From the IMG/VR virus record IMGVR_UViG_2537562017_000014: a stretch of DNA of 9,110 bases, one strand, 5' to 3'. Source of the stretch: a virus (Duplodnaviria; Heunggongvirae; Uroviricota; Caudoviricetes). This document shows positions 1 through 9,110 of this stretch, in pieces (the first letter of the stretch is position 1; every line of letters starts with the position of its first letter). The notes under the pieces were generated by a model. The model was given only the letters and a program-made list of their open reading frames with translations. It had not been told where the DNA came from and ran no database searches. The translations under genes and the position numbers were made by a program.

Positions 1-562
1 TCAACTCGCTGAATTCTTTTCTCATTTGGGAAAGTAACTGCCGACGTACTGATTCAATTTCTGCTGTTTGAGCTCTCAAATATCTTGAGAAATCAAGTAG
101 TTCATCAGCTGTTTTGTTTTGGCTATTTATAAACGTAACAGGTTGCCCTGGCTTAGATATGAGAAAGAATTGATCAATTTTATCAAGTAATGGTGGAATT
201 ATTTGTTTCCATTCAGCCCATTCTTTTTCACGATGAAACTCCAGGCTGTGCTGACATGCTCTGAGTTGCTGTATATCAATCGCCCAGACCTCACTCTCAT
301 CGAGGCAATCTTTCCATTTGCTAATTACATTAATGTCAAATTTTTTGTTCGGTCGATAATCTTCTTTGGCGCGCGCTTCCAGTATAGAGGCAAGGCTACC
401 TGTATATTGCATCAAATTGGTAGATGCTCGGTTTACTAGCTCAGATATTCGATCTAGTTGAGTTGTTCTAATCTCAAGTGCTTTCTTTTTACGTTCATTT
501 CGTAAAGCAAAATATGCAGCAAGGCAGACTGCAGCAACTGTGGCTGCTGGTTGCATATTCAT
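1..562 (-). CDS. Hypothetical protein with N-terminal hydrophobic anchor; partial, 3' end runs off the left edge; AT-rich accessory (cargo) gene downstream of gpD
   Basis: Minus-strand frame is open from the ATG (complement of 560-562) to position 2; I checked every in-frame triplet by hand and found no stop. AGAGGA Shine-Dalgarno lies 8 nt upstream of that ATG. Translation starts MNMQPAATVAAVCLAAYFALRNERKKK, a 16-residue hydrophobic stretch followed by a basic cluster. Absent from the supplied ORF track, apparently because it has no stop inside the window. An alternative in-frame ATG at 584-586 lacks an SD. No family recognised. Confidence 0.6.
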   Translation of the reverse strand, partial: MNMQPAATVAAVCLAAYFALRNERKKKALEIRTTQLDRISELVNRASTNLMQYTGSLASILEARAKEDYRPNKKFDINVISKWKDCLDESEVWAIDIQQLRACQHSLEFHREKEWAEWKQIIPPLLDKIDQFFLISKPGQPVTFINSQNKTADELLDFSRYLRAQTAEIESVRRQLLSQMRKEFSEL

Positions 563-624
563 AACATGGATCCTCTGACATGGCATTTATGGGCGCTATT
601 TCAGCAGTAATCATTTGTGTGTAA

Positions 625-643
625 ATTTGTTTGCTACAAATTA
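625..643. promoter_or_regulatory. Candidate operator: perfect 7-bp inverted repeat AATTTGT-N5-ACAAATT, with a further direct ATTTGT copy at 613-618, in the 5' leader of the cargo ORF
   Basis: Read directly: 625-631 aatttgt, 632-636 ttgct, 637-643 acaaatt. Lies 60-80 bp upstream of the minus-strand ORF start at 562. A minus-strand -10-like hexamer TAGAAT (complement of 648-653) is adjacent, but the -35 is weak. Confidence 0.25.
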
Positions 644-756
644 ACATATTCTAATGTAAGGTACTTCTGATTTTGACACTTGGTAGGCTGTCAGATTGGT
701 TATGATTCTTGCTGTAGGCGCGTTAACAAATGTCAGGGCTAATGCATCTAAGTTGT

Positions 757-1857
757 TTACTCTGTTTCTGCTATCCATTCCGGGATTTTTGCTTCAAGCT
801 CAAGCTGAGTGGTAAAGCCGCTGTTGTCAATGGTGTGCTCGGCTTTTGCAATAATCCAGTCCTGATTGTCAATGTCACTTTTGAAGCCTGTCACCGTGCC
901 ATGCATTTCGGGATAGAGTTCTGCACGTCCACACGCCAGCGTGATGGAGAACGCTGCGGCTCCGCGTTGTAGCTGCTGCCACTTTGCCGCCGCTGCACGT
1001 CTTGCTGCCTGCTCGTTCTGATAAGTCTTGCGTAACACAAACACGTTGCCTTCCGCGCCTTCCATATAGTCGCCTTCCCGGCTGCTGCTTTTCTCCTTTT
1101 TCGGTTTGCGGCGTTTCACGTTGACTTTTTTCTTTTTCCCGTAATTAAGATCAAGCCAGTAGGCGCGTACACCCGTATACGCCTCGCGGTCAGCAATGCG
1201 AAACTGATGGCGATCGCCGCTGCTGCGTGTGATGGCAAACGATGGCAATGGTTTTCCCTGTGCGTTCACGCCACCGCCTGGCATGATGAATAACAGATTA
1301 CCGCTTTTTACCGTGGTGATTGCGCCCAGCATTTCCGCCATGCGCGTAAGGAAGGACATGTCGCTTTCTTCGGTCTGGTCGGCGTGGTCGATTTCGATAT
1401 CCATCAGCATTTCGCTGATTTGCGGTTTCAGGCCGTACCGGTGAGCGATAGCAGATACCACGCGCTCAACGGTCACATCATGCCAGGACACTTCACGTTT
1501 AACGTTAAATTCATCCCGAAAATCTGCGCTTCTGGCTGAAACAGTCAGCCTGTCCGGCGGACCTTCGTGAGCGATTTCATCAACAATGTAAGTGCCTTTT
1601 TCTGTCAGCGGTTCTCCTTTCCAGCCAATGAGAACCGTCAGGCGCGCGCCCCGTGGCGGTAGCTGCAACTGACCATCCGCATCATCCAGCGTGATGGTGA
1701 GCTGGTCCGCCTCAAATCCCCGGTTGTCGGTCAGTGACAGGCTCATCAGGCGCTCGGCCACGCCTGACAGCGTTTTACCCTCCGCGAGAATATCAAAATC
1801 CGGCATTTTCACGGGGTCTGTGCCCTGACTGAGCAATTGCATGGTGGTATCGGTCAT
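757..1857 (-). CDS. P2 gpD-like tail protein (late control gene D family)
   Basis: Translation carries the gpD-type organisation: LMSLSLTDNRGFEADQL, SWHD, a Lys/Arg-rich linker KKKKVNVKRRKPKKEK, EGDY...NVFVLRKTY and WQQLQRG...FSITLACGR. Start chosen at the ATG on the complement of 1855-1857 (MTDTTMQLL) because a GGGAGGG Shine-Dalgarno sits 5 nt upstream. The track's longer ORF to 1989 has no comparable signal. Stop is TAA on the complement of 757-759. Confidence 0.85.
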   Translation of the reverse strand: MTDTTMQLLSQGTDPVKMPDFDILAEGKTLSGVAERLMSLSLTDNRGFEADQLTITLDDADGQLQLPPRGARLTVLIGWKGEPLTEKGTYIVDEIAHEGPPDRLTVSARSADFRDEFNVKREVSWHDVTVERVVSAIAHRYGLKPQISEMLMDIEIDHADQTEESDMSFLTRMAEMLGAITTVKSGNLLFIMPGGGVNAQGKPLPSFAITRSSGDRHQFRIADREAYTGVRAYWLDLNYGKKKKVNVKRRKPKKEKSSSREGDYMEGAEGNVFVLRKTYQNEQAARRAAAAKWQQLQRGAAAFSITLACGRAELYPEMHGTVTGFKSDIDNQDWIIAKAEHTIDNSGFTTQLELEAKIPEWIAETE

Positions 1858-2014
1858 CTGTTCCCTCCCTGTGCGGCATGGTCGCATGTGCGTGCGGAGG
1901 GGGTTACTGCTTTTTGTTGTCGCCGTGGCGGGAGAACGGCGCAGGGGTGAGATTACGCGCGTGGTGGGTGATGATTGTTGCCGAATCATTTAACGGATAC
2001 AAGGGGCTGAAGCT

Positions 2015-3193
2015 ATGAGTGAAACTCGTTTTCATGGTGCCCGTGTTACGGAAAATACCGACCTGGTAACAGCGATTAAGATGTTGATTCCAGGTTATCG
2101 GTATCGTGGCAACGGCGGATGATGCGGAGCGAGCTGTTCCCGCTGAACAAGCCCACACTGCTGACCCGCGTCAATGACGTGCTGGGAAAATGCGGACAAC
2201 GGGACGCTTTATCGTGCGCTTAAGGCCATCGCAGACCAGGTGAGCACAAAGGTGATCGTCGTTCGCGTGGCTGAACACAAAGAAGAAGACGGAAAGACGC
2301 AGGATCAACTGGTTATCGGTGGTTCTGAGGATGACGGCAGCTATACGGGGATGTATGCGCTGCTTGTTGCAGAGCAGGATGAAAGCATCGGATACCGTCC
2401 GCGTATTCTGGCCGCGCCGGAGCTGGACACGGAGGCGGTAACAAAATCCCTGTGCGTGATTGCGGGTAAACTGCGCGCGTTTGTGTATGCCTCATGTCAC
2501 GGCTGTAACACGATGGCTGAGGCGATTACCTACCGCCAGAAATTCAACGAACGTGAGGTGATGCTCTTATGGCCGGACTTCATCGCCTACAACCCGAAAA
2601 GTGGCAAAAACGAAACGTTCCCCGCGCCTGCCTATGCGTGCGGCCTTCGTGCGTACATTGACCATGAGCAGGGCTGGCACAAATCGCTGTCCAACGTTCC
2701 GGTTAAAAATGTGCTGGGGATGTCCAGGCATGTGTTCTGGTCGTTGCAGGCCGAAGACAGTGATGCCAACAGCCTCAACAACAAAGAAATCACGACCATT
2801 ATTCGTCGCAATGGGTTCCGCTTCTGGGGCAACCGCACACCGGAAACGAACGCCTACATCTTTGAGGTGTATACCCGAACCGCACAGGTGCTGGCTGATT
2901 CAATTGCGGAAGCGCAGTTTGAAACCATCGACAGTCCACTGACGCCTGCGAACGTGAAAGATGTTATCAGTGCCATCAGGGCAAAACTGGATTCACTGGT
3001 TACTGCCGGGAAACTGATTGGGGCGTCGTGCTGGTATGACGTGGTGGATAACGGCACCACGAATTTACGTCAGGGGCGCGTGCGTATTCGCTACAAATAT
3101 ACGCCTGTTCCCCCGCTGGAAGACATGGAGCTTTACCAGTCGTTTACTGATGAATTCTTTGGTCCCGCATTTGCGGTGCTGGGAGGTGCCTGA
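2015..3193 (+). pseudogene. P2 FI-like contractile tail sheath; 5' ~180 nt disrupted by three frame changes, reading frame intact from about 2192 to the stop
   Basis: ATG at 2015 with AAGGGG SD 8 nt upstream gives MSETRFHGARVTE, then a stop at 2120-2122. Sheath-like N-terminal motifs continue in other frames: VIGIVATADDAE (frame of 2094-2129), FPLNKPTLLT (from 2137), then GTLYRALKAIADQ in the long ORF 2174-3193. The long ORF has clear sheath motifs (WPDFIAYN, IRRNGFRFWGNRT, YKYTPVPPLED). Stop TGA at 3191-3193 overlaps the FII start. Confidence 0.75.
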
Positions 3194-3705
3194 TGGCTGT
3201 ACCAAAACATCTTCGCTTTTTTACGCTGTTTGTGGATGGTGAAAACGAAGTGGGTAAGGTGACGTCCGTCACTCTGCCTAAGCTGACGCGCAAAACCGAC
3301 AGCTACCGGGGTGGTGGCATGATGGGTGCGGTAAGTATTGATCTCGGTCTGGACGACTCCGCGCTTGATGCGAGCTTTGTCATGGGGGGCGCAGTTCGTG
3401 AGCTGTTCCTTAAGTATGGCGGCACGATTGACGGCACGCTGCTGCGTTTTGCGGGTGAATACTACACCGATGCAGAAAGCGACCTGTATGAAGTCGAAAT
3501 GCGCGGACGTGTGACGGAAATTGATATGGGGGAAGCCAAACAGGGCGAAGCCACATCACACACTTACGCCATTAAAAACACCTACTACAAGCTGAGTGTT
3601 AACGATCGCCCGTTGTGGGAGATTGACCTGCTGAACTTCATTTACCGGAAGGACGGCAAGGACATTGTGCCCGATCGCATCCGTTCCGCGCTTGGGCTTG
3701 GCTGA
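3193..3705 (+). CDS. P2 FII-like tail tube protein
   Basis: 170-aa ORF. ATG overlaps the FI stop (TGATG), suggesting translational coupling; GGGAGG SD 6 nt upstream. Translation MAVPKHLRFFTLFVDGEN...TLPKLTRKTDSYRGGGM matches the remembered P2 tube N-terminus pattern (PKLTRKTxxYRGGGM). Confidence 0.9.
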   Translation: MAVPKHLRFFTLFVDGENEVGKVTSVTLPKLTRKTDSYRGGGMMGAVSIDLGLDDSALDASFVMGGAVRELFLKYGGTIDGTLLRFAGEYYTDAESDLYEVEMRGRVTEIDMGEAKQGEATSHTYAIKNTYYKLSVNDRPLWEIDLLNFIYRKDGKDIVPDRIRSALGLG

Positions 3706-3759
3706 TAAGTAATATGCAGGCGGCGCAGTGCGTCGCCTCTGACTGAAAGGAGTTTCCTG

Positions 3760-4125
3760 ATGAAAGAGACGAAAAACATCGATACCGAAAACACGGTAGT
3801 TACTGACACTGTGAAAGAAACCAGTGAGCGTGGCGTAAAACTTACCCAACCAATTGAGCGAGGCGGCGAAAAAATCACGTATGTGGAGATCACCGGGGCT
3901 ATTGAGCAGGCTGGATCTCTGCGAGATTTGTCGCTGTCTGATGTGCTGAATCTGAAAGCGGAATCCATGTTTACGCTGCTGTCACGCGTGACATCACCGC
4001 GACTGGATGAAGTGACGATCAAAAAAATGGCATCCCGTGACTTTATTCAGTTATGTGTGGTTGCCGTAAATTTTTTGAGCGGTGCGGACTCTGGCGGGAA
4101 GAACGAACAGGCGACGGAAGCCTGA
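3760..4125 (+). CDS. gpE-like tail assembly chaperone (zero-frame product)
   Basis: ATG at 3760 with AAGGAG SD (3747-3752) 7 nt upstream. Sits between tube and tape measure as in P2/lambda G-GT. Contains the slippery heptamer near its 3' end. Confidence 0.8.
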   Translation: MKETKNIDTENTVVTDTVKETSERGVKLTQPIERGGEKITYVEITGAIEQAGSLRDLSLSDVLNLKAESMFTLLSRVTSPRLDEVTIKKMASRDFIQLCVVAVNFLSGADSGGKNEQATEA

Positions 4126-4289
4126 TCACGGTTGTGTGCTTTGAGCACATAGAAGACTTTGTGGCGGATATTGCCGCCATTTTTAACTGGTCGCCCGCCG
4201 AAATCTTCATGATGACGCCCGGCGAAGTGGTTAGCTGGCGTGAGCGGGCGGCACTTCGCAGCGGGAATGCAGACAATGAAGACTCTTGA
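3760..4289 (+). CDS. gpE+E' fusion chaperone produced by programmed -1 frameshift (3760-4077 joined to 4077-4289)
   Basis: Slippery heptamer T TTT TTG at 4071-4077 is positioned X.XXY.YYZ in the E frame (codons AAT TTT TTG). The -1 frame is open from there to TGA at 4287-4289 and encodes FEHIEDFVADIAAIFNWSPAEIFMMTPGEVVSWRERAALRSGNA (track ORF 4053-4289), the conserved E' extension. Confidence 0.65.
4071..4077 (+). other. Programmed -1 ribosomal frameshift slippery site (TTTTTTG) of the E/E' chaperone pair
   Basis: Heptamer read directly from the sequence and in the correct register with the upstream ORF; the -1 frame downstream is open and conserved-looking. Confidence 0.7.
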
Positions 4290-7082
4290 TATCCGGGTCG
4301 CTTTCAGCGCCGTTGACAGGCTGACCCGGCCTGCCGAAAACGCCCGCCGCCTGATGGGGCAGTTTGGTGACTCCATCCAGCGAACGCAGGGGGCGATCAA
4401 AAATCTCGAGCGTCAGGCGCGATCATTTGAGCGCGCCCGTGACGCTGTCAGTAAAGCGGATGCGGGCATCGTGAAAGCACGACGCCAGCTTAACGCCCTT
4501 AATCAGTTACAACGCACGGGTACAGTGCTCAGCGAAAAACAACAAAAGCTGATGCAGCAGTTAAGCACCCGGCTTGAACGCCTGAATGAATCGCGCACAC
4601 GGGAAATTCAGAAAATGCGGGAACTTGGCGGAGAACTGAAACGCCACGGCATTTCCCTGACAGGCAGCGATAACACCATCCAGCAGGCCATCAGACGCAC
4701 CGAACAGTACAACAACCAGCTTGAACGCGAACGGCAGGCGCTTGCGCGTGTAACGCGGGCGCGTGAGCGGTATTCGCGCGCGCAGGAAACCGCGGGAAAA
4801 CTGAAAACAGGTGGTGCGCTGGCAATTGGTGCGGCAGCGGCTGGCGGCTATGCTGCCGGGCGTTTTTTGCAGCCTGCGATCGGGTTCGGCAAAGAGATGT
4901 CCCGCGTTCAGGCACTGACGAGAATCGACAAAAACAGCCCGCAGTTTAAGGCGCTGCGTGAGCAGGCGTTAAAACTTGGCTCTGAAACACAGTTTACTGC
5001 GAGTGATGCCGCCAGTGGGCAGAGCTTTCTGGCAATGGCTGGTTTTACTCCGCAGGCCATTCAGGCCGCATTGCCCGGTGTTCTTAATATGGCGCTGGCA
5101 GGTGGCGTCGAACTCGGCGAGACGGCTGATATAGGCTCCAATATCCTCACACAGTTCAATCTGACAGCCGATCAAATGGACCGGGTTGGCGATACGCTGA
5201 CAGCGGCATTCACCCGGACCAATACTGATTTACGCGCGCTGGGCGAAACCATGAAGTATACCGGTCCGGTTGCCGCAAAACTTGGTATCAGTCTTGAAGA
5301 AGCGACGGCCATGGCCGGGATGCTTGCCAATAATGGTCTTCGCGGAAGCGATGCTGGTACGGCCATGCGCGCAAGTCTGTCCCGCCTAGCATCACCGCCA
5401 AAAGCTGCGGCTGATGCGCTGAAAGAGCTGGGGGTGTCAGTTGCTGACGCCAGAGGCAAAATGCGCCCGATGGAGGATGTGCTGCTTGATCTCTATAAGG
5501 CGACACAAAAATACGGACAGGTGGACCAGGTTTCCTTCTTCAAGGACATCGCCGGAGAAGAGGCGTTCGTTGGTTTGCAGACGCTTGTTGCGGCGGCTGG
5601 TTCAGGAGAGCTGCAAAAACTGACCAGAGAATTGCAGGGGGCAAGGGGAGAGGCCGATCGCGTCGCAAAAGTAATGGCCGATAATCTTGATGGGGACCTG
5701 AAAAATCTCGACAGCGCATGGGAAGGTCTTCGTATTCGCATCAGTGATCTGGTTGACGGTCCGCTGCGTTCTGTCACCAGTGGCTCACGCGGGTGCTTGA
5801 AAAAATCACCTCGCTGGCGCAGGCCCATCCGGTACTGACACGCCAGCTACTGATAGCAGGCGGTGCGTTGCTGGCAATGACTGCAACGATTGGCTCGTTG
5901 TCGCTGGTTATTGGGGTGCTTTACGGAAAGCTGGCCACCCTGCGTCTTGGTTTTGACATTCTTACCCGGTCAATGAATGTCGTCAGGGTGTTGCCTGCGC
6001 TGTGGGGAATGCTGACGGGTTCCGTTTCTTTGCTGGGAGGCGCTATCGGAGCGCTGTTCAGTCCGGTTGGTCTTATCGTGGCTGCGCTTGCCGGAGCTGC
6101 CGTTCTTATCTGGAAATACTGGGATCCCATCAGGGCATTTTTTGCCGGGGTGTTCAGCGGGATTATGGAAAGGCTGACCCCGTTGCGCGAAACCTTTGAA
6201 CGGTTTGGTCCTGTTTTTGACGCAATCGGAAGCGGGATCAGCCAGGTGTTTAACTGGTTTAAATCGCTGTTGTCACCGATGGAGTCCAGCAAGGAAACGC
6301 TGGATAAATGTACCAGTGCTGGCGAGATATTCGGTAACGTTCTTGGTGGTGCGTTACAACTTGTTCTGACACCTGCAAAAATGCTACTGGATACGCTGGC
6401 GTGGATACTTGAAAAACTTGGCGTCCTTCCGGATGAAGCGGAAAGGGCGCGCAAGAAAATCGAAGACGCACAGCGTGCGGCCATTCTTCAGGACAAGGTT
6501 GCCTTACTTCAGGGGGACCTGGCGAAAATCAATCCGCCGAAGCCTGTGGAAAATGGCAATGGCACCGGAGGTGATAAACCCAAAGACAACAAACCGCTCA
6601 CAGACAGCAATACCGGGACGCTACGCAGACTCAGCAAAATTGCTGATAACACAGGTAAGCTGGTTGATGAGACGAAAAAACGCATTGGCCCCGGCGATAT
6701 TGTCTTTAAGAACCTGCCCCGCGCACTTGCTGTTCGTGGGGAGTGGCAGGAGCGGAAGATTGCGCAGGTCAGTAAGCCTGCCCCCGCAATTAATATCACC
6801 CCCGTGGTCCCGGCTCCGCTGCCTCCGGCGCTGGTCCCTGTTGTTGCGGCCAGCTCCCGCCCGGTGGCGGAGGCCATACGATCTCCAGTGGCATCAGTTC
6901 CTGTAACTTCCCGTAACCGGGAGCCTGTTGCCTCCGGATTTGGTGGTGAAATTCATGTTCATCTGCATAACGTTGTTACGCAGAATCCCCGCGAACTGGC
7001 GAAACTGGTCGGTGAAATGGTCAGGGCAGAAATGGAACGGCGCGCTCGTGCCGGGCGTGGCAGTTTTTACGATAAAGATTGA
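4267..7082 (+). pseudogene. gpT-like tail tape measure protein, split into two overlapping ORFs by a frame change near 5757-5800
   Basis: Track ORFs 4240-5838 and 5793-7082 are in different frames and overlap by 45 nt. The first is coiled-coil/Ala-rich and the second has hydrophobic glycine-rich helices, both typical of tape measure proteins. The second frame opens only at 5757 and its apparent start is GTG. First in-frame ATG after the E' overlap is 4267 (alternative 4276). Confidence 0.7.
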
Positions 7083-7094
7083 GGAGTCATGGCC

Positions 7095-7583
7095 ATGATG
7101 ATGATCTACGGCATGTTTGTTTTTGAGCTGCGCACGTTGCCGCATCAGCAGTTACAGCAAAACAAAAGCTGGCGGCATGTGAAAAATGAACGCGTTAACC
7201 GTTCAGCAAGCTGGCAGTATATCGGTGCAGGTGATGATCGCATCGTTCTTTCTGGTGTGCTTTATCCTGAAATTACAGGTGGCGAAGTGTCGCTGTCGCT
7301 GCTGACCACGCAGGCGTATACAGGACGCCCCTGGCCTCTGATTGATAGTGTCGGGCAGATTTACGGCATGTATGTGCTGACTGAAACGAATACGACCCGT
7401 TCCGAGTTTGATCGCTACGGTAAGGCGAAAAAGATAGAATTTTCACTGACCCTTGAACGCTGTGATGAGGATTTGCGGGAGCGCCTGCAATCCTCATCAT
7501 TCAGCGATATGCTGTCCGGCTTCAAAGATAAGGTGACATCATCTCTTAACAGCGCGGCCAGTTCAGTTAAAGGGCTGTTCTGA
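7095..7583 (+). CDS. P2 gpU-like tail protein
   Basis: GAGGAG SD at 7081-7086 is 8 nt before the ATG at 7095 (MMMIYGMFVFEL); the ATG at 7089 is only 2 nt from the SD. Position directly after T. Stop TGA at 7581-7583. Confidence 0.85.
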   Translation: MMMIYGMFVFELRTLPHQQLQQNKSWRHVKNERVNRSASWQYIGAGDDRIVLSGVLYPEITGGEVSLSLLTTQAYTGRPWPLIDSVGQIYGMYVLTETNTTRSEFDRYGKAKKIEFSLTLERCDEDLRERLQSSSFSDMLSGFKDKVTSSLNSAASSVKGLF

Positions 7584-7594
7584 TTTAACACAAA

Positions 7595-7630
7595 AACCGC
7601 TAATGGCCAGATTAGCGGTTATTTTGTTTT
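7595..7630. terminator. Bidirectional rho-independent terminator shared by convergent gpU and invertase genes
   Basis: Perfect 10-bp stem AACCGCTAAT (7595-7604) / ATTAGCGGTT (7611-7620) with 6-nt loop GGCCAG. Followed on the plus strand by ATTTTGTTTT and on the minus strand by TTTTTGTGTT. Confidence 0.6.
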
Positions 7631-8206
7631 CTGACTCTTCTCTATTGTTCCGCTTGATTCTCCTGCGGGGTGGTAACGATAAATCGTCGATGTACCAATG
7701 CCGTAAATTATTGCCAGTTGTTTTCTGTCGTGACCGTTTTTAATCAGCCTTGCTATTTGCTCATGCTGTTCTTTTGTCAGCTTCGGTCGACGTCCGCCTG
7801 TGCGCCCCCGTGCGCGCGCTGCCGCCAGTCCGGCCAGTGTACGTTCAACAATTAATTCACGTTCCATTTCAGCCAGGGCACCCATCACGTGGAAGAAAAA
7901 ACGCCCCATTGGAGAAGATGTATCTATGCTGTCGGTCAGACTGCGAAAATTAATCCCTCGCTCCCGTAGTTCCCCGACGAGAGAAATCAGATGTTTCATG
8001 CTTCGCCCGAGGCGATCCAGTTTCCAGACAACCAGCGTGTCACCTTTTTGAAGACGCTTTAAAGCGCGTTTTAATCCCGGTCGGTCTGTCTTTGTCCCGC
8101 TTAATTTATCTTCAAATATTTGTTCACATCCTGCACAAACAAGAGCGTTTCGTTGCAGGTCTGTATTCTGGTCATTTGTTGATACCCTTACATAGCCAAT
8201 CAGCAC
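7619..8206 (-). CDS. Serine DNA invertase (Gin/Pin/Hin/Cin family resolvase-invertase)
   Basis: Translation LIGYVRVSTNDQNTDLQRNAL...DTLVVWKLDRLGRSMKHLI...FFFHVMGALAEMERELI has the catalytic Ser motif (VRVSTNDQ) and a C-terminal HTH (GTSTIYRY), as in Gin/Pin. The track start at 8224 is a TTG; I prefer the GTG on the complement of 8204-8206, with GGGAGA SD 6 nt upstream, which gives the family's usual MLIGYVRVS N-terminus. Confidence 0.9.
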   Translation of the reverse strand: MLIGYVRVSTNDQNTDLQRNALVCAGCEQIFEDKLSGTKTDRPGLKRALKRLQKGDTLVVWKLDRLGRSMKHLISLVGELRERGINFRSLTDSIDTSSPMGRFFFHVMGALAEMERELIVERTLAGLAAARARGRTGGRRPKLTKEQHEQIARLIKNGHDRKQLAIIYGIGTSTIYRYHPAGESSGTIEKSQKTK

Positions 8207-8260
8207 GCTGAATCTCCCGTCCAAAAGCGTAAATCATGCCATGCAGGTCAGAAACAGCCA

Positions 8261-8286
8261 TTATCTAAAACCTCGGTTTACAAGAA
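8261..8286. other. Invertase crossover site (gix/pix/hix-like, 26 bp)
   Basis: TTATCTAAAACCTCGGTTTACAAGAA; differs at two positions from the Mu gixL sequence as I remember it (TTATCCAAAACCTCGGTTTACAGGAA). Lies 55 bp upstream of the invertase start and at the 5' end of the fibre cassette reading frame. Confidence 0.8.
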
Positions 8287-9110
8287 ACGGTAAATCAGGC
8301 TTCTGGCGCATTACAGAAAAACCAGAACGGCGCAGATATTCCCGATAAAAAACTATTCCTGCGTAATATCGGCACAACAAATTCAACAACCATGTCTTTT
8401 AGTGGTGGTGCTGGATGGTTCAAACTGGCAACTGTAACAATGCCACAAGCCAGTTCCGTGGTTTACATAAGTCTGATTGGTGGTGCTGGATATAATGTTA
8501 ATCCCCATACGGCAATAATAAAATTATTACCGATACTGGCTGTGGAACTATTCATCTTGCAGGTTGCGTTATTGAGGTTATGGGTAATAAAGGTGCCATG
8601 ACCATCCGTGTAACCACCCCGAGCACTTCCAGCGGTGGCGGAACTACTAATGCACAATTTACTTATATAAACCACGGTGGAGATTATGCGCCAGGCTGGC
8701 GGCGTGACTACAGTACCAAAAATCAGCAGCCTGCATTTGCTTTAGGGCAGACAGGAAGCACTGTTGGAAATGACAAAGCTGTTGGATGGAACTCAAATAG
8801 CGGCGTTTATAATGCGACTATTAGTGGAGCGTCAACATTGATTCTTCACTTTAATATGAATGCGGGGAGTTGCCCGGCGGTTCAGTTCCGTGTGAATTAT
8901 AAGAACGGCGGTATTTATTATCGTTCAGCGCGAGATGGTTATGGATTTGAGGCTGACTGGTCAGAGTTTTATACCACAACACGCAAGCCATCAGCAGGAG
9001 ATGTTGGTGCATATACCAAAGCCGAATCAGATTCTCGCTATGTACGAGATATTCGCCTGGGCACACGTGTTGTTCAGACTATGCAAAAAGGCGTGATGTA
9101 TGAGAAATCA
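8269..9110 (+). CDS. Alternative tail-fibre C-terminal variable cassette (promoterless; partial, continues past right edge); frame change near 8500
   Basis: The frame opens at 8269 inside the crossover site and has no plausible start or SD, as expected for a cassette expressed only after inversion fuses it to a constant fibre N-terminus. Translation NLGLQETVNQ...GADIPDKKLFLRNIG...SGGAGWFKLATVTMPQASSVVYISLIGGAGYNVN, then in another frame from 8502: PYGNNKIITDTG...GWRRDYSTKNQQ...AYTKAESDSRYV, which is fibre-like. A 14-bp codon-aligned direct repeat (8403-8416, 8478-8491) encodes GGAGW/GGAGY. Confidence 0.6.

Follow-up and report, generated by a model that had tools for sequence, protein, structure and literature searches.

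What does the AT-rich stretch beside tail gene D encode, and why does it lie there? The locus sits at the left end of the window, by which we mean the whole stretch of 9,110 nucleotides that was analysed (IMG/VR record IMGVR_UViG_2537562017_000014). On the minus strand, an ORF (hereafter the cargo gene) is open from an ATG at 562–560 to the window edge, a translated length of 187 codons; it is missing from the mechanical ORF list only because ORFs running to an edge go unlisted. Given the base composition of this region, 187 codons would stay free of stops by chance with a probability of about 2e-6. The DNA of the window is E. coli chromosomal, and positions 1–900 are 99.9% identical to strains 510016 and EC130. 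Strain 510016 has the whole ORF, 217 aa long (WP_096954265.1, annotated as “hypothetical protein”); the complete ORF was read in NZ_CP025851.1 (99.9% identical). The window (1–562, minus strand) holds codons 1–187 of these 217, or 86%, and the missing 30 codons and stop lie 1–91 nt beyond its left edge.

The preliminary description had taken the minus-strand frame of at least 187 codons as a real gene, which it is, and had allowed that it might prove a fragment; it is intact over 217 codons in strain 510016. The leftward extension it had proposed, made through near-identical genomes, recovered the full ORF, ogr and hok/gef. Its expectation that most of the gene and any partners would lie outside the window was wrong, as only 30 of 217 codons are absent, and in the complete locus of near-identical E. 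coli genomes the gene is monocistronic, with no partner. Comparison with the Kluyvera orthologue gave a dN/dS of 0.25–0.26, and comparison with the E. coli E2348/69 allele 0.52. Over the long range (dN/dS 0.25), the gene is under purifying selection.

The base composition of the segment is foreign to its surroundings. The preliminary description had called the ORF more AT-rich than the tail genes, and on recount its figures were exact (44 G+C in positions 1–120, 33 of 60 in 3241–3300). The cargo ORF has 37.9% GC (GC3 30%), versus 53.7% (GC3 59%) for D. GC content stays near 39% up to about position 750 and is 52–60% across the tail genes. The foreign segment is about 0.9 kb long with 38.6% GC, against about 54% in the tail genes and backbone.

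Upstream of the ORF, a Shine-Dalgarno sequence of its own, GAGGA, was read at 575–571 (minus strand), 8 nt before the ATG, as had been noted earlier; a block at this site, GCCATGnCAGAGGAT, is kept in Kluyvera. It belongs to a 142-nt leader (563–704, minus strand) that travels with the ORF: the leader shares conserved blocks with, and is homologous to, the region preceding the orthologue of a lambdoid prophage in Kluyvera, and blastn of that locus (L018) against the strain 510016 locus (L001) covers window 704 to −98. The leader presumably houses the gene's own promoter; a sigma-70 consensus scan of the leader strand gave no match. A terminator-like hairpin lies 3′ of the ORF stop. Predicted folding of the leader RNA is unremarkable (z = −1.26), and a structured leader was discarded. 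So was the idea that a P2 late-promoter element (TGT-N12-ACA) precedes the gene, since the spacing, judged by eye, does not fit. Rfam models matched only an unrelated tmRNA in the window and six related loci.

The leader had also been credited with operator-like repeats. One imperfect inverted repeat does exist at 620–646, with arms TGTAAATTTGT (620–630) and ACAAATTAACA (636–646) pairing at 10 of 11 bases around a 5-nt loop; an equally good one arose in 25 of 2000 shuffles (1.25%), so that it is uncommon by chance. However, no direct repeats were found. The Kluyvera orthologue does not preserve the right arm, and on that ground a conserved operator palindrome was rejected. A 50-codon upstream ORF (495–647, minus strand) starts at a conserved ATG in the leader and overlaps the start of the cargo gene in another frame. 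It is probably not a gene, because the Kluyvera version stops after 23 codons.

The position of the gene is best understood from the complete locus of strain 510016, where D, the cargo gene, a hairpin, ogr/Delta, hok/gef, a 93-aa ORF, tRNA-Leu/Cys/Gly and pgsA follow one another on one strand. The 93-aa ORF (L001 13695–13976, plus strand) is cysteine-rich and belongs to phrog_27544; together with the hok/gef toxin gene it sits between ogr and tRNA-Leu, at the prophage end. As the preliminary description had remarked, no ogr is present in the 194 bp between D and the ORF, but ogr is displaced rather than missing: it lies 150 bp past the cargo ORF, outside the window, shifted about 1 kb away from D. 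In P2 itself the D–ogr gap is 81 bp and holds no cargo, only the ogr promoter. The region after D and ogr had been said to hold old in P2; old and tin actually lie between A/orf91 and cosR.

Homology to related prophages ends just after the D stop, at about window position 741 by megablast and about 687 at lower identity. It resumes some 60–70 bp before ogr, at a promoter-like sequence (TTGGAG-17-TAGAAT), and the jump in composition coincides with these breakpoints. The D end was matched in 779 E. coli genomes, only 53 of which also have the cargo ORF. Ten related prophage loci were then sampled for the content of the slot, and eight states were found, the cargo ORF accounting for two loci. 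One state is empty, with a gap of 42 bp. The six other cargo types (D–ogr intervals L004, L005, L006, L025, L027 and L028) are a 379-aa SEC-C/YecA-family protein, a ComF-type PRTase with a 185-aa protein and, on the opposite strand, a 340-aa protein weakly matching HEPN_RiboL-PSP, a 465-aa hypothetical protein, a ParA-like 352-aa protein and a 384-aa hypothetical protein. Counts of cargo types in 5,426 complete genomes were comparable (53 for the cargo ORF, then 89, 65, 17 and 8). The comparison across prophages that had been proposed thus found a true variable slot, its content changing between conserved D and ogr, with homology breaking on both sides. Judged by replacement in its slot and by distinct composition, the gene is phage moron, or hotspot, cargo, and it may be expressed independently in the lysogen.

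PADLOC recognised no complete known system in the slot cargo of any sampled locus, its sole signals being a PRTase weakly matched to PsyrT and a PDC-M28B match; the six other cargo types are therefore candidates as well. Defence-type domains do occur in the other cargo, namely the PRTase resembling PsyrT and the HEPN-like domain.

How cargo is exchanged can be approached from the flank between D and the ORF. A MAFFT alignment of eight loci and the junction sequences delimit a flank common to all occupied slots at 687–756 (minus strand), AACTTAGATGCATTAG...TTACAGCA.AGAA...AATCTGACAG, which on this evidence belongs to the phage backbone or the border of the slot and is not specific to the cargo. 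In a comparison of the window with the D-proximal flanks of L004–L006, L025 and L018, these ~70 nt past the D stop were common to slots whose cargo is unrelated and may point either way. In several slots the flank is followed by a GTCCGC...GCGGAC hairpin, and part of the flank also precedes the orthologue in the Kluyvera lambdoid prophage. Transposon- or integron-like cassette ends were rejected, the alignment showing no flanking inverted repeats. Recombination within the conserved flanks would be the simplest mechanism of cargo exchange.

Which family the protein belongs to was asked of several libraries. Profile searches of Pfam, PHROGs, NCBIfam and PADLOC assigned no family to the query or to 17–24 relatives, in line with the earlier impression that none could be recognised, and a match to a known housekeeping or structural family, which would have spoken against accessory cargo, did not appear among them. 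None of 24 family members matched any of the 5,027 models of PADLOC-DB 2.0.0 at E ≤ 0.01; the cargo protein had one stray match at E = 0.012, over a 33-residue stretch only. At the same threshold, Pfam and PHROG models gave nothing for the query and 17 relatives, superinfection exclusion families (e.g. SieB) included. A sequence-profile search of the PDB had no match, and a literature search by accession and topic found no paper or experiment on the protein.

The seven matches returned by a search of 5.8 billion proteins came exclusively from E. coli and Kluyvera. Of two profile searches, the first, of 1.84 billion representatives, gave 23 clusters and the second 29 matches, in Klebsiella, Citrobacter, Salmonella and Pseudescherichia, and tblastn on plasmids extended the family to Pantoea, Erwinia and Winslowiella. 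Because protein, profile and plasmid searches gave only such matches, the family is, as far as they reach, small (about 25–30 clusters) and restricted to Enterobacterales. It includes truncated clusters (P0005–P0007). No isolated phage was found to carry the gene; the sole record in a phage collection, “phage 520873” (strain 520873), is a prophage with a frameshifted copy.

Alignments, hydropathy and structure prediction were combined to describe the protein. Codons 5–21 (500–550, minus strand; PAATVAAVCLAAYFALR) form a marginally hydrophobic N-terminal helix, which carries a small-xxx-small face (A11/A15/A19) and is the most conserved segment of the family. It is a putative inner-membrane anchor. 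The hydrophobic anchor of the preliminary description is therefore present as a helix but marginal as an anchor: the Kyte-Doolittle 19-residue mean is 1.33 for the window allele and 1.4–2.15 for relatives (usual cut-off 1.6), and a crude Hessa sum of +2 to +6 is unfavourable compared with −3 to 0 for the Tsr and LepB controls. Hydropathy revealed no second hydrophobic segment. The helix is followed by a basic stretch, RNERKKK (codons 21–27; 482–502, minus strand), in which N22, K26 and K27 are invariant and which, by the positive-inside rule, would place the rest of the protein, the bundle described below, in the cytoplasm.

AlphaFold gave a poor model with four close sequences (pLDDT 45), whereas with 24 sequences pLDDT reached 83 and pTM 0.69. 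The predicted fold is an N-terminal helix running into a generic four-helix bundle: a long helix (residues 5–67), a kinked return (77–110), helices at 112–132 and 152–188, and an amphipathic C-terminal helix (195–215, hydrophobic moment 0.49). Segment 133–151 is less confident (pLDDT 65–70 at residues 131–150); it contains FFLISKPG (codons 132–139; 146–169, minus strand; consensus FFxIxxPG), a conserved hydrophobic motif whose Pro-Gly turn closes helix 3. An F-H-R motif (codons 109–111; 230–238, minus strand) puts an invariant His-Arg at the predicted turn between helices 2 and 3. The family-invariant residues are T8, A16, L20, N22, K26, K27, Q104, H110, R111, W118, L125, L162, R173, L176 and F209. 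Conservation is highest in the N-terminal hydrophobic segment and residues 22–45, and variation, with indels, in residues 46–96. Since a plain anchor is not expected to be the best-conserved segment, we infer that the N-terminal module has a specific function beyond anchoring. A fold search matched generic helical bundles only.

The window allele alone, among all relatives, is without four residues (IFIA/IFIG) of the N-terminal helix, which raises the question of whether this copy is still functional. The state of its host bears on the answer. The element appears to be a decaying P88-like (Xuanwuvirus) P2-family prophage of E. coli. Gene D, the conserved upstream anchor of the slot, encodes 366 aa at 757–1857 (minus strand; Phage_GPD, Pfam PF05954), and the 366-aa D protein of L004 matches window 1857–760 at 97.8% in tblastn. 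The mechanical D ORF (757–1989, minus strand) has 410 codons, and its start was set at 1857 by this comparison; RefSeq gives D only 263 aa in strain 510016, plus an overlapping pseudo “hypothetical protein”. The tail-sheath gene FI (2015–3190) becomes garbled at about 2078 and has three stops in frame (2120, 2144 and 2162), and the tape-measure gene T (4276–7079) changes frame near 5778. Judged by these breaks the prophage looks defective, unless they are sequencing errors.

D is divergent from FI-FII-E-T-U (2015–7583, plus strand), whereas in P2 the genes from FI to D to ogr are co-directional; since every related E. coli locus has this arrangement, as does “phage 520873” (Xuanwuvirus), it is a trait of the lineage. 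A Hin/Gin-type invertase lies next to U (recombinase at 7619–8224, minus strand). The left 3 kb of the window are 99.2% identical to strain 510016, the remainder only 92% (window 2973–8299 versus L001 19938–25279), and the IS100 in FI of strain 510016 is absent from the window. Both prophages are thus mosaics that have the D/cargo end in common.

That the window allele is a decaying remnant of this defective prophage, released from selection while the family may function elsewhere, would agree with the broken sheath and tape-measure genes, the unique four-residue deletion and the higher dN/dS against E2348/69. Decay among its relatives points the same way, with the frameshifted copy in 520873, the truncated clusters, and an IS1 in or next to the matched region (window 3–900, which includes the D end) in AR_0128 and AR_0118. 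However, all 217 codons of the ORF read through without interruption, and every residue invariant in the family is retained. Domestication is usually marked by an intact cargo gene within a decaying prophage. We consider the remnant explanation improbable.

The contexts in which homologues occur show how the gene moves. When loci were compared in pairs, homology extended no further than the ORF, 140–270 bp on its 5′ side and less than 60 bp on its 3′ side; the unit that moves is therefore this one gene together with its leader. Homologues are carried by lambdoid prophages of Kluyvera and Citrobacter braakii, Rep3 plasmids, Pantoea and Erwinia plasmids, ICEs and chromosomal islands. A second subfamily has a conserved upstream region of about 170 nt across different mobile elements (L009, L013, L014, L021 and L023; about 5780–6000), with a promoter-like TTTAC...GCTATAGT, and a leader of about 95 nt holding a hairpin and a duplicated CAGGAAAT; Rfam had no match to this region.

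Defence-type neighbours, immediate or within a few genes, were present in 5 of about 12 distinct contexts, a small sample. They are CBASS SMODS with S_4TM (in two species); KAP NTPase, TIR and RES; nSTAND; DUF4238 with DUF4145; and AAA_15. Such recurrence in unrelated contexts suggests, within the limits of that sample, that the gene resides in defence islands. The CBASS case could mean that the protein is not autonomous but an accessory that senses for, or regulates, a neighbouring system. The family gene lies about 0.5 kb upstream of SMODS and S_4TM in Pseudescherichia and Klebsiella michiganensis, in the same orientation and with differing outer flanks (L009 6001–9199; L011 6001–9233). Yet the two family genes are 76% identical and the CBASS genes 86%, the spacer is non-homologous, and the gene stands alone in at least nine other contexts, the window among them. 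Membership in a CBASS operon was rejected on the first two grounds, and an accessory role of this kind appears very unlikely.

Plasmids suggest another role. On four of them the family gene has rep/par genes for neighbours and converges on a tyrosine recombinase gene of about 245–260 aa (Klebsiella, Pantoea and Erwinia; L007, L029, L030 and hit H72). This arrangement speaks most strongly for an accessory or maintenance factor unrelated to defence, for instance a membrane-associated one acting in stability, partition or host physiology, that the slot carries passively (the recombinase there being about 245 aa); that no defence model matches the family and that the fold resembles sensor-type four-helix bundles would fit as well. 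On the other hand, the gene is also found in phage and ICE cargo slots and in chromosomal defence islands without replicon functions, it has no conserved partner, and the D–ogr slot is not a maintenance region. A maintenance role is, in our estimate, rather unlikely.

The reading that we tentatively favour, at somewhat less than even chances, is that the cargo gene, by itself, provides exclusion or abortive infection through a protein tethered at the inner membrane. We counted for it the variability of the slot, the composition jump, the unit of transfer, the mobile contexts and defence neighbours, the defence-type domains in other slot cargo, the dN/dS of 0.25, the N-terminal conservation and the confident AlphaFold model. 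Counted against it were the lack of a PADLOC or family match, the generic fold, the marginal anchor, the lack of an isolated phage carrier, the E. coli dN/dS of 0.52, the truncated copies, the position in plasmid backbones and the failure to locate a promoter.

Consider a horizontally acquired, self-expressed single-gene moron in the swappable D–ogr slot. It would be expressed constitutively in the lysogen, and its product would sit at the inner membrane, where the weakly hydrophobic N-terminal helix would tether it to the cytoplasmic face (N-out, C-in) and the C-terminal amphipathic helix may add to the attachment. The cytoplasmic four-helix bundle, with its variable tip exposed, would recognise a component of an incoming phage or element. 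The membrane-proximal module (N-terminal helix, N22/K26/K27 and H110/R111) would then act at the membrane, so that either entry of the genome would be blocked or the membrane compromised, as in abortive infection.

A bolder version is possible but doubtful: that the family forms an undescribed class of single-gene immune proteins, with the N-terminal helix as effector and the variable bundle as sensor, on a self-promoted cassette of about 0.85 kb that spreads among the phages, plasmids and ICEs of Enterobacterales. If that were true, P88-like prophages would have, between D and ogr, a defence hotspot that is still unmined. If the exclusion protein proved active, it would be a new membrane-tethered, non-enzymatic type; if inactive, one of many orphan prophage morons. 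The gene is compact (217 aa, one gene), which makes it a cheap candidate to test.

Several known proteins were compared with the cargo product. Four-helix-bundle sensors (Tar/Tsr, NarX/NarQ, QseE and the NIT domain of NasR) share 8–14% identity with it, Foldseek E-values were 0.4 or worse, and neither Pfam 4HB_MCP nor NIT matched. This fold match is generic, because designed bundles score equally well. Unlike these sensors, the cargo protein is without a second transmembrane helix or an output domain, and its bundle is predicted to be cytoplasmic rather than periplasmic. A 4HB_MCP/NIT-type identity was set aside, with no profile match and no TM1-bundle-TM2 topology. ClyA/NheA-type alpha-helical pore-forming toxins scored no better than unrelated bundles and have no sequence similarity to it; they are at most a lead. 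T4 holin T is of similar length with a single N-terminal TM; a relationship was rejected, with no Pfam match and a different predicted fold.

Membrane exclusion proteins offer a further comparison. HK97 gp15 and T4 Imm are prophage or phage membrane exclusion or abortive-infection proteins of a comparable kind. Like P22 SieA (PMC10883804) and the membrane-anchored PdpSau of S. aureus (PMC10127798), the cargo gene is a small single prophage gene whose product is predicted to be membrane-associated and non-enzymatic. It has no detectable sequence or fold relationship to any of these four, and its bulk is predicted to be cytoplasmic.

Variable accessory cargo in P2-like prophages is well known, and their variable slots have already been the source of many new anti-phage systems; the libraries and papers searched contain no description of the cargo family or of D–ogr cargo. 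Rousset et al. 2022 (PMC9122126) described the cargo of the gpA–gpQ hotspot in P2-like phages, and another report (10.1101/2024.10.15.618418) mentions a “third hotspot between a tail protein and CI”, to which the D–ogr slot may correspond. The slot is not among the two classical P2 hotspots, and none of its seven cargo types in ten loci was recognised by PADLOC as a known system. It differs from P2 cargo sites in lying at D–ogr, not at gpA–gpQ or at the Z/fun site, and in sequence the cargo gene is not similar to old, tin or fun(Z). Like these genes and the hotspot cargo, however, the cargo gene is non-essential, AT-rich and horizontally swapped between conserved phage genes, and, as in the P2 hotspots, the alternatives at one position differ between close relatives.
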